Origin: an uncultured Erysipelotrichaceae bacterium
Lineage (GTDB): Bacteria; Bacillota_I; Bacilli_A; RF39; UBA660
Direction: 5' to 3'
Length of the DNA: 64,000 nucleotides
Assembly (NCBI GenBank): GCA_902794075.1
Contig: CADBGE010000001.1
Coordinates: forward strand, 76,603 to 140,602
Part shown: in pieces, positions 33,018-64,000 of the stretch
Numbering within the stretch: the stretch's first letter is position 1
How the letters are laid out: the number at the start of each line of letters is the position of its first letter
Program-made: the position numbers and the translations under genes
Notes under the pieces: generated by a model
What the model was told of the DNA's origin: nothing
Database searches by the model: none
The model's input: only the letters and a program-made list of their open reading frames with translations

Positions 33018-33653
33018 TTAATGTGACCATTTTGGAGCTTTTAATTTTGTTCCATTGGTCATTTTTCTACATTGTTGTGGTCCTAAATTGTTATTTAATT
33101 TTGATTCCCAATTGTCTATGTCTATTCCTTCAAGTGTTTCACAATCTCTAAACATTGCATTAAAATTTGTAACATTTTCAACATTCCATTTGCTAATATC
33201 TCCTATTGTCTTTAATCTTTTACATCCATCAAACATATATCCAAGATGCTTAGCTGATGTCATATTCCATTCAGATAAATCACCAATATATTTAAGATTT
33301 TTACAATCATAAAACATATCATTAAATTTTTTTATATTACTTACATCCCATTTTGAAATATCTATTGCATGCATTTTATAGTCTGATTTCTTTACGTTTT
33401 TATTAACAACGCCAAAAACAAATGATAAATCATCTAAATTAAATACATTAATATCGTTAAGGTCAACTGGTTTTTTATCGGTTCCTCCTTTTTGTTTTAT
33501 GACTAAATCTGAAATAACTTTTATAAGTTCTTCCTTTGTTTCTGGAGTATATATTTGTTCATCTTTATAGTTCTTATTAATTACAAGTTTTTCATTCACT
33601 TGTGATGGAAATATGACAAGTTTTTCAGATATGTAGGTCTTTAATGATTTCAT
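33018..33653 (-). CDS. DUF285 / BspA-type LRR protein with leader plus one FPSQV unit
   Basis: 211 aa. Starts MKSLKTYISEKLVIFPSQVNEKLVINKNYK, followed by IDISKWDVSNIKKFNDMFYDCKNLK-type repeats. Confidence 0.8.
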   Translation of the reverse strand: MKSLKTYISEKLVIFPSQVNEKLVINKNYKDEQIYTPETKEELIKVISDLVIKQKGGTDKKPVDLNDINVFNLDDLSFVFGVVNKNVKKSDYKMHAIDISKWDVSNIKKFNDMFYDCKNLKYIGDLSEWNMTSAKHLGYMFDGCKRLKTIGDISKWNVENVTNFNAMFRDCETLEGIDIDNWESKLNNNLGPQQCRKMTNGTKLKAPKWSH

Positions 33654-40092: not shown

Positions 40093-40707
40093 TTATTCTA
40101 TTATGAACATGTACCAATATTCCATGTATTCTTTTCCATTGTAATTGACATGCATATTAAGTTTCAATAAATTACATTTATGTTTACCTAATTGTTCTTC
40201 CCATACTGTTGCAGTGCAATTCATTTTCTGATGTATGATTCTTGATTTCCATGTATCTGTTATATCATTTATAAATTTTGGAACAATCTTATCTAATGCA
40301 TCAAAACTATCATAATTTTTCCAGCCAACTACAATGTTACCATCACAAAATCGTTCAATTACTTCATACATATCGTCAGACTTTCCAAAATTGTCTTCCC
40401 AAGGTTCAAAATAGTCTCTGACTGTAAACTCTTCTGAATCATCCCAAAGAGCAGGATCATTCTTGCCTGATTTTGCAATGTATTCAACCGTATCATACAA
40501 GTCGTCATCACTATTTATAGATTCAATTTTATCAAACACTTCATTATTATATAATTTAGTGTTTTTATTTATGACAAGTTTTTCATTCACTTGCGATGGA
40601 AATATGACAAGTTTTTCATCTACTTGTGATGGACGTATTATTAGTTTTTCATTTATTGAAATCGAAGGTTGCTTCTTATATTTTAGATATTGTTTTAATG
40701 TTTTCAT
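40093..40707 (-). CDS. hypothetical protein, leader with two FPSQV-type units
   Basis: 204 aa. Starts MKTLKQYLKYKKQPSISINEKLIIRPSQVDEKLVIFPSQVNEKLVINKN. Confidence 0.7.
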   Translation of the reverse strand: MKTLKQYLKYKKQPSISINEKLIIRPSQVDEKLVIFPSQVNEKLVINKNTKLYNNEVFDKIESINSDDDLYDTVEYIAKSGKNDPALWDDSEEFTVRDYFEPWEDNFGKSDDMYEVIERFCDGNIVVGWKNYDSFDALDKIVPKFINDITDTWKSRIIHQKMNCTATVWEEQLGKHKCNLLKLNMHVNYNGKEYMEYWYMFIIE

Positions 40708-53277: not shown

Positions 53278-53808
53278 TTATTTTTTTCCTAAGAACAGAT
53301 CATAATATTCATCATTGCCAATAACGATAATAATGAATTCATCAGTTTCATCATATTCAAAAGCATATCCATTCATATCATTAAATTCTAACTGTTTTAA
53401 TTCTATATTCTTATTAATCATTTCATCGAATGCTTTTGAAATGAATTCATTTTTTCCATTAACTTCAATCATATACGTTTCATTACATTGCTTCAATAAA
53501 CGTATAGTTTCAATAGCATTTTTTATTTCTGAAAGTTTGTGCCCAAACGCTGATGTAATGTCTGCAGCTTCAACAAATGCATTATCTGGGCTAATTTGTG
53601 TGTATATTAGACCACCTTTTCTTTCGTCTATCGACCGCCATATTTTTGATAATATTTCATTAAGATCATCTGAAGAATTTTTATAGTTCTTATTAATGAC
53701 AAGTTTTTCATCCACTTGTGATGGAAATATGACAAGTTTTTCATTTAAATATTCATTTAAAGAATAAAGATCTTTCACATGTGAAATATATTTACTTAAT
53801 GATATCAT
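53278..53808 (-). CDS. hypothetical protein, doubled leader plus one FPSQV unit
   Basis: 176 aa. Starts MISLSKYISHVKDLYSLNEYLNEKLVIFPSQVDEKLVINKNYK. Confidence 0.7.
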   Translation of the reverse strand: MISLSKYISHVKDLYSLNEYLNEKLVIFPSQVDEKLVINKNYKNSSDDLNEILSKIWRSIDERKGGLIYTQISPDNAFVEAADITSAFGHKLSEIKNAIETIRLLKQCNETYMIEVNGKNEFISKAFDEMINKNIELKQLEFNDMNGYAFEYDETDEFIIIVIGNDEYYDLFLGKK

Positions 53809-55441: not shown

Positions 55442-56020
55442 TTATGAATTATCTTCAATGAATTTTTTAATTTTTTCAATGTCCTTTTCGGATAAATTTA
55501 ACGAATATGACATCTCTGAATCTACTCCATCTAAATTATCTATATATTCATATGTAAAAATGTTAAATAATTTATCGATATATGCTGGTGTATATTCTTT
55601 AAAACTAGTCAAATTGTCAAATGCATTTATATTCCTCTTCATATGAGATACTGGAATAAATACATAATATGATCCACAATTATTATTTATTGACTCCTTT
55701 GTTGCTACAAGTTGATTATTAGTATCATATTTTACATCTATTGCCCAGTTTCCAAATCCTGTAACAGATGATCCTTCTAAATGTTGTTCACCATATTTGT
55801 TTGGTTCTCCTAATTCATCAAGTGATATACCAATTATACTTAAATAAGCGTTTGGCTTAGAATTTGGGCTATATATAAATACTAATAAATTTTGAAAATG
55901 ATTATAATCTTCTGACGAAATTGATACATCTTTGAAGTTCTTATTAATTACAAGCTTTTCATCTACTTGTGATGGAAATATGACAAGTTTTTCATCTATG
56001 TAGCGTTTTAATGATTTCAT
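55442..56020 (-). CDS. hypothetical protein, leader plus one FPSQV unit
   Basis: 192 aa. Starts MKSLKRYIDEKLVIFPSQVDEKLVINKNFK. Confidence 0.7.
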   Translation of the reverse strand: MKSLKRYIDEKLVIFPSQVDEKLVINKNFKDVSISSEDYNHFQNLLVFIYSPNSKPNAYLSIIGISLDELGEPNKYGEQHLEGSSVTGFGNWAIDVKYDTNNQLVATKESINNNCGSYYVFIPVSHMKRNINAFDNLTSFKEYTPAYIDKLFNIFTYEYIDNLDGVDSEMSYSLNLSEKDIEKIKKFIEDNS

Positions 56021-61467: not shown

Positions 61468-62112
61468 TTACATGTTAGAACATCCATGTAACATATTATA
61501 TGTTTTTGCGGATGACACAATGTTCCATTTATTTAAATCAAAATTTAATTCATAACAAAACATAAACATTCCAGTAAAATCTTTTCCATTCTTTACGTCC
61601 CACTTACTTAAGTCGCAATTGAATTTTTTACATCCATAAAACATGCAAGAAAAATCTTCTCCATTCTTTACGTCCCACTTACTTAAGTCACAATTGAATT
61701 TCTGACAATTAAAAAACATACTTTTAAAATTATTGCCGCCACTTACATTCCAATCACTAATGTCAAATCCTTTACGTCCTACATTTTTGTCTTCAAAAAA
61801 CAAATCACTAAAATCATCTATTTCTGAAACATCAATGTCATTTAAATCATATATATCTTTGTCATAATGTTCTTTTATAATGTCTTTTAGTTCATCTTTA
61901 TTTTTAGGATGATAATTATACATTTTATAGTTCTTATTAATTACAAGCTTTTCATCTACTTGTGATGGAAATATTACAAGCTTTTCGTCTACTTGTGATG
62001 GAAATATTACAAGCTTTTCATCTACTTGTGATGGAAATATGACAAGCTTTTCATCTACTTGTGATGGAAATATGACAAGTTTTTCATGTATATACTTATT
62101 TAATGATTTCAT
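61468..62112 (-). CDS. DUF285 / BspA-type LRR protein, leader with four tandem FPSQVD units
   Basis: 214 aa. Starts MKSLNKYIHE(KLVIFPSQVDE)x4 KLVINKNYK. Contains repeats such as FDISDWNVSGGNNFKSMFFNCQKFNCDLSKWDVKNG. Confidence 0.8.
   Translation of the reverse strand: MKSLNKYIHEKLVIFPSQVDEKLVIFPSQVDEKLVIFPSQVDEKLVIFPSQVDEKLVINKNYKMYNYHPKNKDELKDIIKEHYDKDIYDLNDIDVSEIDDFSDLFFEDKNVGRKGFDISDWNVSGGNNFKSMFFNCQKFNCDLSKWDVKNGEDFSCMFYGCKKFNCDLSKWDVKNGKDFTGMFMFCYELNFDLNKWNIVSSAKTYNMLHGCSNM
61943..62087. repeat. 33-bp tandem repeat, 4 full copies plus a partial one (coding)
   Basis: Units acaagcttttc(a/g)tctacttgtgatggaaatat(t/g) at 61943-61975, 61976-62008, 62009-62041 and 62042-62074, plus a partial unit to about 62087. 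Each encodes EKLVIFPSQVD on the minus strand. Confidence 0.9.
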
Positions 62113-62672
62113 TTTAATTTGTCTATTATTTTATCATAATCTGATTTTGACGGATTATCTGTTCCTACAACATAATCGTTATCAACTATTGTTTTAAACA
62201 ACGTTATAAAGTCATCAATTGGCATTTTATAACAGTTTCTTATTTCCCAGCCTTCAACAGATGAATGGGTACCCTGATCATATACAGCTTTAACTATTAT
62301 TAAATTATCATTAACTGGATATATTGATAATTCAATAATTTTATTTTCATCTAATACACTCTTATGAAATGTTATTGTATTATCAAAATTTGATACTGTA
62401 ATAACAACTAAACCTTCATCTAAATACTTGTTGACATCGCCATTAATAGATGCGTATTTTTGTTTTATATTTTTTTCAACTGACTTCAATAGATTTTTAT
62501 ATGCACTGTTATTAAGTTCAAGACGATATCCCCATATCATACCATTACGTTTCAATTCACTCATTTCTCCATCAGTAATCAATCTAATAATATTATCAAG
62601 TTCATTGTCGGTATTCTTGAAGTTTTTATTGATGATTAATCTTTCATTCAAATATGTCATGAGTCTTTTCAT
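62109..62672 (-). CDS. hypothetical protein with MKRL leader variant
   Basis: The track ORF starts at TTG 62684. The ATG at 62672 gives MKRLMTYLNERLIINKNFK. ATGA overlaps at both ends link it to its neighbours. Confidence 0.7.
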   Translation of the reverse strand: MKRLMTYLNERLIINKNFKNTDNELDNIIRLITDGEMSELKRNGMIWGYRLELNNSAYKNLLKSVEKNIKQKYASINGDVNKYLDEGLVVITVSNFDNTITFHKSVLDENKIIELSIYPVNDNLIIVKAVYDQGTHSSVEGWEIRNCYKMPIDDFITLFKTIVDNDYVVGTDNPSKSDYDKIIDKLK

Positions 62673-63277
62673 TCTTTGTACCAATATGGTGTATTTTTTA
62701 TTCCTGAGTGTGCAAACATACCGCGCATATTTTCACATTCTGAAACGTTCCAATTTGATAAGTCACCTACAAATTTTAAATTTATACAGTCATAAAACAT
62801 GCTGTTCATATTTTCAACTTTTGAAACATCCCAATCTGATAAATCTCCAATTGATATTAACTTGTTGCACCATGCAAACATACCGCGCATATTTTCAACT
62901 TTTGAAACATCCCAATTAGATAAGTCTCCCGCTGATTCCAAATTTTCACAGTGATAAAACATATATTCCATGTGTTCAACATTTGAAACATCCCAATCTG
63001 ATATGTCAATATATTCAAATTTTGTTACATCAAATATTCCTACAGTTCCATCATAAAATGAATCAATGTTACTTACATCTACATCGTTAAAGTCAATAGG
63101 ATTCTTCTCTGTACCAGGTCCTTGTTCTTTATATCGTTGTTCTATAATCTTTCTTAACTCTTTAAATGATTTTGGAGCACATGTATATAAGTTGTAATTT
63201 TTATTAATGATTAGCTTTTCATCAAATCGCTGATTGATGATTAATCTTTCATTCAAATATGTCGTGAGTCTTTTCAT
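62669..63277 (-). CDS. DUF285 / BspA-type LRR protein with MKRL leader variant
   Basis: The ATG at 63277 gives MKRLTTYLNERLIINQRFDEKLIINKNYN. Contains repeats such as IDISDWDVSNVEHMEYMFYHCENLESAGDLSNWDVSKVENM. Ends YWYKE. Confidence 0.8.
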   Translation of the reverse strand: MKRLTTYLNERLIINQRFDEKLIINKNYNLYTCAPKSFKELRKIIEQRYKEQGPGTEKNPIDFNDVDVSNIDSFYDGTVGIFDVTKFEYIDISDWDVSNVEHMEYMFYHCENLESAGDLSNWDVSKVENMRGMFAWCNKLISIGDLSDWDVSKVENMNSMFYDCINLKFVGDLSNWNVSECENMRGMFAHSGIKNTPYWYKE

Positions 63278-64000
63278 TCTTTGTACCAATCTGGTATATT
63301 TGTTATTCCTGAATCTTTAAACATATCATCCGTAAACATAACATTTGAAACATCCCATTTAGATAAATCTCCTACTGATTTTAAGTTTATGCATCCATAA
63401 AACATGCATGACATATTTTCACATTTTGAAACATTCCATTTTGATAAATCTCCAATTGATTTTAATTTTTCGCATCCGCTAAACATTTCTACTGTATCTT
63501 CAACACTTGAAACATCCCATTTAGATAAATTTCCAACAGATTCTAATTTATAACAATTACGAAACATATAACTAATATCTTCAACACTAGATACATCCCA
63601 TTTAGATAAATTTCCAATTGTGTTTAAATTATAACATCCATAAAACATATAACTAATATCTTTAACATTTGAAACATTCCATTTTGATAAGTAACCAACC
63701 GATTTTAAATTGTGACAATCAAAAAACACCCCAAACATATTTTCAACACTTGAAACATCCCATCTTGATATGTCAATGTATTCAAACTCAATTTCTTCAA
63801 ATGCGCCTCTATTATTATAAGAAACAAGTGTTTTTAATTTACTAACATCAACATCATTAAAGTCAATAGGTTTCTGTTTTGTCCCAGGTCCTTGTTCTTT
63901 GTATCGTTGTTCTATGATCTTTCTTAACTCTTCAAATGTTGATGGATCACAGGTATATGGATTATTATAATTTTTATTTATAACCAACTTTTCATTCAAA
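63274..64000 (-). CDS. DUF285 / BspA-type LRR protein, 5'-partial (start beyond window end)
   Basis: The reading frame is open to the window edge. The first visible residues, (L)NEKLVINKNYN, are the distal part of the leader. At least 6 LRR units follow. Ends DWYKE, with the stop overlapping the next ATG. Confidence 0.8.
   Translation of the reverse strand, partial: LNEKLVINKNYNNPYTCDPSTFEELRKIIEQRYKEQGPGTKQKPIDFNDVDVSKLKTLVSYNNRGAFEEIEFEYIDISRWDVSSVENMFGVFFDCHNLKSVGYLSKWNVSNVKDISYMFYGCYNLNTIGNLSKWDVSSVEDISYMFRNCYKLESVGNLSKWDVSSVEDTVEMFSGCEKLKSIGDLSKWNVSKCENMSCMFYGCINLKSVGDLSKWDVSNVMFTDDMFKDSGITNIPDWYKE

Follow-up and report, generated by a model that had tools for sequence, protein, structure and literature searches.

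The window analysed here is a 64,000-nucleotide stretch (positions 76603-140602) of C1, a phage contig in the metagenomic bin G000 that carries all of the window's genes. Towards its far end, on the minus strand, lies gene 61468..62112, whose product of 214 residues is assembled from distinct parts: a ten-residue start module; four tandem copies of an 11-residue unit, each encoded by 33 bp and here called the cassette; a short core, KLVINKNYK; and a DUF285 body (BspA-like leucine-rich repeats, LRR), as read from the list of open reading frames (ORFs) and from Pfam. Start module, cassette units, and core together make up the leader. The start ATG overlaps the stop codon of the upstream gene (ATGA). 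The parts of this focal gene are arranged as follows.

62083..62112, minus strand: start module MKSLNKYIHE, resembling the T4 capsid targeting sequence (CTS) MKTYQEFIAE (M1, K2, aromatic residue 7, I8, E10)
62050..62082, minus strand: cassette unit 1, KLVIFPSQVDE; 5' codons AAA CTT GTC ATA, the generic consensus form
62017..62049, minus strand: cassette unit 2, KLVIFPSQVDE; 5' codons AAG CTT GTC ATA
61984..62016, minus strand: cassette unit 3, KLVIFPSQVDE; codons AAG CTT GTA ATA ... GAC GAA
61951..61983, minus strand: cassette unit 4, KLVIFPSQVDE; 5' codons AAG CTT GTA ATA, the same as in the gene's own core
61924..61950, minus strand: core KLVINKNYK, encoded by AAG CTT GTA ATT AAT AAG AAC TAT AAA; the putative mature N-terminus
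61468..61923, minus strand: DUF285 LRR body, confidently folded (Pfam and AlphaFold confidence)

Tandem Repeats Finder (TRF) delimits the array at 61940..62087, with a period of 33, 4.5 copies, 96% matches, and zero indels. Among the four units, nucleotide differences are confined to four positions, every one of them synonymous. A previous sequence-only reading of this stretch had described four near-perfect units plus a partial one: the four units are there, whereas the "partial fifth" is the KLVI of the core. Its remark that each unit ends in V-(D/N)-E followed by K is true of every unit. The body matches DUF285 (PF03382) with E=1.4e-44 (151 bits, against a gathering cut-off of 25), and a separate 75-bp tandem repeat found by TRF at window 61564..61719 corresponds to two neighbouring LRR units within it (KFNCDLSKWDVKNG.DF). 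Along the run 61468..64000, leader genes are chained by ATGA stop/start overlaps (for example, at window 62109..62112). This chaining accounts for the conserved pattern FRNNKYT.LVQRMK, which several starts have in frame upstream of them: it is the conserved C-terminus of the preceding DUF285 gene (...WYKE*) read in another frame. The exact focal protein sequence has no match in the protein collection; its locus was found through the neighbouring gene.

Comparison of the cassette with its copies in other genes and other genomes shows that it is young, mobile between paralogues, able to expand and contract in register, and polymorphic at the level of strains. The reading we favour, with a probability of roughly 0.55, is that each unit may be a cleavable spacer module in a propeptide like that defined by the T4 CTS, and that the array grows and shrinks through in-register unequal exchange.

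The following leader genes of the window also carry optional modules.

33591..33623, minus strand: single unit KLVIFPSQVNE, in gene 33018..33653 (DUF285 body)
40582..40647, minus strand: two units, KLIIRPSQVDE then KLVIFPSQVNE, in gene 40093..40707 (without a Pfam match)
53707..53739, minus strand: single unit KLVIFPSQVDE, in gene 53278..53808
55958..55990, minus strand: single unit KLVIFPSQVDE, in gene 55442..56020
63218..63247, minus strand: another module flavour, the 10-residue RLIINQRFDE, in gene 62669..63289

All cassettes in the window lie on the minus strand, flanked by a start module and a KLVINKN(Y/F/T)K core; the remaining leader genes have zero cassette units. The sites had been recognized before and are real, although the coordinates then assigned to them were about 8 nt out of codon register. 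The accompanying rule, that MKSLxxYIxE always precedes the unit and KLVINKNYK always follows it, is true in a loose sense: the start modules of two genes are extended (MKTLKQYLKYKKQPSISINE and MISLSKYISHVKDLYSLNEYLNE).

Evidence for the youth of the cassette comes from codon choice. Same-codon identity was scored at identical residues between C1 paralogues, with the expectation taken from the codon usage of the contig. For the cassette it is 0.82 (expected 0.47); for the flanking EKLVINKNY core, 0.55 (expected 0.56); and for the start module, 0.66 (expected 0.51). Core codons thus stand at the chance level, as for an old signal that is kept at the peptide level while its synonymous sites are saturated, whereas cassette codons lie far above expectation, which indicates a young element that spread by copying among leaders after these had diverged. 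Across the unit, nucleotide identity per codon is 0.75-1.0; it drops to about 0.35 by nine codons downstream of the array, and the bodies of the cassette genes, about 35% identical in nucleotides, are unalignable. The cassette is therefore more alike between genes than the rest of those genes, as had been proposed.

The focal array records how it grew. Its units 3 and 4 share their 5' codons, AAG CTT GTA, with the gene's own core, whereas unit 1 is generic. The distal units are thus hybrids, with a core 5' part and a cassette 3' part, as fits in-register unequal exchange or slippage between unit and core. Units and core begin alike, with the same approximately 14 nt (GAW GAA AAR CTT GT), and all 13 cassette-bearing genes of C1 have a CTT-type core; leaders overall use CTT, TTA, or CTA for that Leu. 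(Of 44 core Ile codons at P4', 23 are ATC, a rare codon with a genome-wide share of 9%, and at P3' the prevailing codons are GTC and ATC.) A constraint at the DNA level between genomes was considered and dropped. Ordinary orthologues of close relatives show 64-94% nucleotide identity and 0.54-0.87 same-codon identity; cassette identity between genomes is no higher, so recent common descent explains its uniformity. The contrast between cassette and core within the genome is the only codon argument that stands.

Unit number varies among close relatives. Orthologue clusters at least 90% identical contain 0, 1, 2, 3, 4, or 5 units, as the individual genes illustrate.

33018..33653, minus strand: 1 unit in C1; 0 units in orthologues at least 90% identical; 2 units in the positional orthologue on a syntenic contig (L005)
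40093..40707, minus strand: 2 units in C1; 2 different units, 1, or 0 in close orthologues
53278..53808, minus strand: 1 unit in C1; 0 units in orthologues at least 90% identical
55442..56020, minus strand: 1 unit in C1; 0 units in cluster variants at least 90% identical
C1:373784..374506: 5 units in C1; 0, 1, or 3 units, or 4 modules, in cluster variants

In the cluster of the last of these genes, one body type stands behind several different start modules. The same gene provides the closest comparisons. A 399,876-bp scaffold from another sample (L015) is 99.90-99.97% identical to C1 over 6.6 kb and, a few point mismatches aside, its sole difference is an exact 66-bp deletion that takes five units to three; another relative (L016), at 99.8-99.95% identity, is missing 132 bp and has one unit in place of five. 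A third (L017) lacks exactly 33 bp in its orthologue of 55442..56020, a clean indel between GATGAAAAR CTTGT direct repeats. In all, exact indels of 33, 66, and 132 bp were found at flank identities of 89-99.97%. The nearest homologue of the focal protein itself (P0001; 63% body identity; start KLIINKNYKMYNYYPKNKDELKDIIKEHY) has zero units. Extra modules number 0 to 5 across the 107 leaders recovered, of which 51 have zero units, proportions that are biased because the sample was seeded with the cassette. The sequence-only reading had proposed that a shared cassette undergoes gene conversion or slippage and had named a fixed copy number among relatives as grounds for rejecting it. The proposal gains support from the homogenisation of the cassette, the codon gradient in the focal array, the range of 0-5 units, and the exact indels; copy number is clearly not fixed, given 0-5 units at identities of at least 90%. 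On/off phase variation is ruled out, since the repeat period is a multiple of three.

The cassette belongs to a larger grammar. When C1 is scanned in six frames, about 55 ORFs turn out to have N-termini assembled from modules. The start module follows the pattern MK(S/T)Lxx(Y/F/H)(I/L)xE, with 31 MKSL..[YH]I.E starts on the contig. Zero to five optional modules follow, with 10 or 11 residues per unit: KL(V/I)I(F/I/R/C)PSQV(D/N)E, KLVIRHQPVDE, and KLIINQ(R/Q)(F/L)(D/N)E, along with longer ones ending in YLNE, SLSE, or NIAE. About 47 C1 genes preserve the peptide sequence of the core, KL(V/I)INK(N/D)(Y/F). Behind these leaders, which hold up to 6 candidate cut sites and reach lengths of about 65-75 residues, come bodies of the DUF285, NUDIX, and DUF3175 families as well as unannotated ones. 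Elsewhere in the bin (the other 1.4 Mb), the leader pattern matches two strays only. The longer module YISQVKDL(H/Y)SLNE is present in 0 to 3 copies among orthologues (metagenome proteins P0121, P0126, P0128, P0143, and P0147), and the module SKALHQNVNIAE is doubled in one C1 gene (C1:~255934, minus strand). The leader is without a hydrophobic stretch, which rules out a secretion signal, a lipobox, or a membrane helix.

What the modules share is their ends. Flavours with differing middles (FPSQVDE, CHQQVDE, RHQPVDE, FHPQVDE, NQRFDE, and the YLNE, SLSE, and NIAE modules) keep identical ends, and those of metagenomic homologues include CHQQVDE, CHQPVDE, FHPQVDE, CSSQVDE, and NHRFDE. The pattern E|[KR]L[VILM][VIL] picks out 91 junctions in the 55 ORFs, compared with 1.4 (maximum 6) in residue-shuffled ORFs. 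All 91 have Glu at position P1 and V, I, L, or F at P3 (background for P3, 35%); P3 is never A, S, or G, and P2 is mainly N, D, or S. (The T4 protease prefers L or I at P3.) A hydrophobic-x-Glu followed by K-L-V/I-I at every module end is the type of site cut by proteases of the gp21 family, which suggests that the modules may be cleaved.

A candidate enzyme is encoded on the same contig. C1, 400,076 bp long and 29% guanine plus cytosine (GC), lies within a 1.8-Mb bin and is a T4-like jumbo phage. It encodes a T4-type split topoisomerase II with a homing endonuclease, an NAD ligase, an RNA ligase, a tail fibre, and a major capsid protein of the Gp23 family (L014:1453..3309, minus strand) that is only 31-34% identical to its homologues in the Tenacibaculum PTm1, Sphingomonas PAU, and Prevotella Lak phages. 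About 18 kb past the window is the gene of interest.

L001:247..1920 (C1:157553..159226), minus strand: prohead protease of the T4 gp21 / Peptidase_S77 family

Pfam assigns this protein at 42.9 bits (cut-off 27) and PHROG 207 at 2e-37; its sole PDB match is T4 gp21 (5jbl), with GELEHP and SSRG aligned. A leader gene adjoins the protease gene. The protease ORF is a 557-residue fusion in which the gp21-like domain precedes a long acidic spacer rich in Lys, Asp, and Glu and about nine tandem NW(I/V)xEE(F/Y) repeats; this acidic tail, rich in hydrophobic-x-E sites, is probably a built-in scaffold. The N-terminus of the capsid protein holds LTE5, LKE18, IHE39, and IHE42, where IHE is also P3-P1 of the focal start module (YIHE), and a capsid propeptide of about 42 residues is plausible from these motifs.

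The bin comprises 129 contigs and 1.82 Mb, with a median GC of 26%, and the phage contig makes up 22% of it. Its presence there could reflect co-binning by composition or a link to the host; one homologue (P0006) carries an NCBI label that assigns it to a Methanobrevibacter metagenome-assembled genome. Scans of IMG/VR with a protein query and with a degenerate cassette pattern gave zero matches, as did a megablast comparison of the neighbouring giant gene with cultured phages.

Leader-type junctions also occur within proteins. About 228 kb past the window end, at C1:368552..371980 (minus strand), three consecutive ORFs each encode two bodies, with 0 or 2 units between them.

Two-body ORF 1: start module, NUDIX domain, ...PVNE|RLIINKNY, second body
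Two-body ORF 2: start module, DUF3175, ...KVDE, two units, KLVINKTYK, second body
Two-body ORF 3: start module, core, unknown body, ...NVDE, two units, KLVINKNFK, second body

These arrangements are conserved in metagenomic relatives, where the number of internal units is 1 (P0143) or 3 (P0121), compared with 2 in C1. Moreover, the second body of ORF 3 is found alone behind its own start module in one relative (P0138) and in fused form in another (P0141). It is difficult to see a leader-type junction that separates two folded bodies as anything but a linker, and a cleavable linker would be the simplest reading.

Structure prediction was made for the focal protein. An AlphaFold2 model of the focal protein, built on a 45-sequence alignment, has a predicted template modelling score (pTM) of 0.71. 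It shows a short helix at residues 4-11 and a DUF285 body with a predicted local distance difference test score (pLDDT) above 90 from about residue 65; residues 12-51, the array of four units, have pLDDT below 50 and are without secondary structure. The focal array is thus predicted to be disordered. A structured RNA formed by the array was rejected, since its fold is no better than those of shuffled sequences (z = -0.95).

These observations suggest a general model. The 11 residues encoded by the 33-bp unit, K-L-V/I-I-x-x-x-x-V-D/N-E, would form one module of an N-terminal propeptide built from modules. The start module would bring the protein into the prohead core, where the phage S77 protease would cut C-terminal to the Glu of each module; the array would break into 11-residue peptides small enough to exit the head, and the mature protein would start with KLVINKNYK regardless of unit number. 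With the array discarded and the junction recreated by every unit, the number of units would be nearly neutral under this proposal. We infer capsid targeting by the start module, S77 cleavage after the module Glu, and near-neutral unit number. The earlier suggestion that the units are extra cleavage sites or spacers is consistent with the gp21-type protease, the 91 of 91 junctions, the internal linkers, and the predicted disorder. A wider claim, that hydrophobic-x-E|KLVI is a portable "cut here" linker, would yield cargo polyproteins in which a single targeting tag loads two different proteins 1:1 (such as NUDIX or DUF3175, each with its second body), swapping of tags and cargo by recombination, and 11-residue peptides in amounts that scale with copy number; we regard it as speculative and on the whole unlikely.

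Several points weigh against the model. The internal proteins of T4 are cut once, beside a 10-residue CTS (PMC8442874), and multi-site leaders depart from that precedent. Cleavage at E|K would leave a conserved KLVINKNYK on mature proteins of unrelated folds, which the model fails to explain. The 91 junctions are non-independent, many being copies of one unit; the low AlphaFold confidence of the array may partly reflect alignment gaps; and some of the copy-number differences among short-read assemblies could be repeat collapse. Finally, alignment to T4 gp23 left the capsid maturation site unplaced (no PDB sequence match).

Other explanations share parts of this evidence. The unit might be a functionless by-product of recombination: an in-frame duplication of the junction, tolerated because it falls within a disordered linker, kept and spread only by the homology of its ends to the E-KLVI junction of every leader, and either cut or left uncut. 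Such an element would be expected to vary freely among near-identical strains, as the cassette does, and the many zero-unit alleles (51 of 107 leaders), the youth of the cassette relative to the leader, the predicted disorder, and the resemblance of the 10-residue KLIINQRFDE module to a duplicated core all agree with it. We nevertheless consider it doubtful. The flavours keep a K-L-V/I-I start and a hydrophobic-(D/N)-E end despite their divergent middles, which argues for selection on the ends over pure drift; in addition, unit differences are mostly synonymous, and internal linker use is conserved across relatives. This explanation overlaps the cleavable-spacer model, in that both treat unit number as nearly neutral. 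Another view, in which copy number tunes dosage or reach, takes the units as retained or transient spacers, or as extra binding modules, that fix the distance of the cargo from the scaffold core or the strength of its binding; their number would then set the packaged amount or the access to protease sites. The repeated K-L-V-I is indeed the most conserved element after the start module, arrays are found on several body types, and targeting and processing determinants are separable in T4 (PMC9026906). However, unit number is uncorrelated with body type or size; 0- and 5-unit alleles of one gene in near-identical phages are unexpected if the number is tuned; and the T4 targeting residues lie within the first seven residues, not past the cleavage site (PMC9026906). 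Tuning therefore seems improbable to us.

Two further explanations would remove the peptide, or the array itself, from consideration. If the 33-bp unit were kept as DNA or RNA (a hairpin near the start codon, or a protein-binding or recombination site), the peptide would be incidental. Near-invariant synonymous sites (CCA TCA CAA in 20-22 of 22 units, and the rare GTC in 12 of 17 position-3 valines) could be taken this way, as could a 5-6-bp inverted repeat, CTTGT...ACAAG, that appears once per unit and as small hairpins in the RNA fold. Yet that fold does not surpass the shuffles; the NQRFDE and RHQPVDE flavours are without the inverted repeat and still have the same peptide ends; indels are all in frame, and nucleotide differences are mostly synonymous or conservative; and identity between genomes is not above that of ordinary orthologues of close relatives (0.54-0.87 same-codon). 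We judge a nucleic-acid role very improbable. The suspicion of an assembly artefact, raised by the sequence-only reading, has some basis: every sequence comes from short-read metagenome assembly, a small k could collapse arrays of 66-bp period, and a k=31 Logan contig (L008) stops exactly where the array ends on its 3' side, which a repeat longer than k would produce. Against mis-resolved repeats, an independent ENA assembly from another sample (L007) reproduces the four-unit gene base for base, with an identical 645-nt sequence and the same four unit-specific single-nucleotide polymorphisms. In all, 5 contigs carry the 3-unit allele (four have lengths of 0.2-1 Mb), and 3 contigs carry the 5-unit allele. 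Moreover, variants that differ in flavour or start module go beyond what collapse creates, and 0- and 1-unit alleles contain no repeat to collapse. An artefact of assembly is thus scarcely credible as the general explanation.

To our knowledge, CTS-type tags are the only sequence rule that predicts which proteins are packed into a phage head and injected. T4 is used as a protein-delivery vehicle on the basis of such tags. The phage group described here appears to have made the tag a grammar of start module, repeatable cut-site modules, and core. That grammar would sharpen the prediction of mature N-termini for dozens of candidate injected proteins and would supply natural candidate cleavable linkers, some of them internal and joining two cargos. 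It would also illustrate how a short stretch of shared DNA reshuffles an arsenal very quickly among strains that are otherwise 99.9% identical. If the cleavable-spacer model is true, proteomics should recover semi-tryptic N-termini at KLVINKNYK at any unit number.

The nearest known counterpart is the CTS carried by T4's internal proteins, which Mullaney and Black reportedly treated in 1996. In T4, IPI, IPII, and IPIII, all of them internal proteins, along with Alt, carry a CTS that is processed by the gp21 prohead protease (PMC9026906, PMC3012670, PMC8442874). This sequence, MKTYQEFIAE, is followed by a single cut (PMC8442874); its residues 4 and 7 serve targeting and its residues 8 and 10 processing, and Asp at position 10 blocks processing but leaves targeting intact (PMC9026906). 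Both systems place a short N-terminal tag on otherwise unrelated proteins, encode a gp21-family protease in the same genome, and have hypervariable sets of tagged genes. The C1 start module agrees with the CTS at M1, K2, the aromatic residue 7, I/L 8, and E10, and the junction is T4-like at P3 and P1. The differences are also clear. Whereas T4 cuts once beside a CTS of about 10 residues, the C1 tag adds 0-5 units of 10 or 11 residues, each with a candidate hydrophobic-x-E|K site; a conserved nonapeptide, KLVINKNYK, follows the C1 tag, and none does so in T4; about 55 tagged ORFs are present on C1, compared with a handful in T4; and C1 modules are also used internally, between two bodies.

Giant phages offer a second comparison. 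The proteases of T4, phiKZ, 201phi2-1, and SPN3US all cleave after Glu in x-x-E (PMC5694885), and the long propeptides of SPN3US are removed by multiple cleavages, proposed to aid clearance of the fragments from the capsid (PMC10052503, PMC5694885). The propeptides of giant-phage head and ejection proteins (SPN3US gp245, and the phiKZ and 201phi2-1 proteases) resemble the C1 leaders in having several protease sites each, candidate sites in the case of C1 (PMC5694885, PMC7411985, PMC10052503), and in occurring on paralogues with conserved N-termini. Theirs, however, are 80-160 residues of unique sequence with A, S, or G at P3, whereas the C1 leaders contain tandem 11-residue copies with V, I, L, or F at P3, and site number in C1 is polymorphic between strains.

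In-frame coding minisatellites, or variable-number tandem repeats, occur, for example, in surface and phage tail-fibre genes. The C1 arrays resemble them in their head-to-tail units, a period divisible by 3, and exact in-register changes of copy number between near-identical strains, with expansion via slippage or unequal exchange. They differ in that the C1 unit is common to many non-homologous genes, at the same position in the leader, and moves between them, and in that it lies in a propeptide that is presumably discarded rather than in an exposed mature domain. In the literature on capsid targeting, propeptides, tandem repeats, and jumbo phages or megaphages, a tandem-unit propeptide of this sort was not found described. 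What appears to be new, relative to the T4 and giant-phage systems, is the use of tandem, portable units that would regenerate their own cleavage site, whose number is polymorphic between strains, and which serve many non-homologous genes and stand within proteins as well as at their N-termini.

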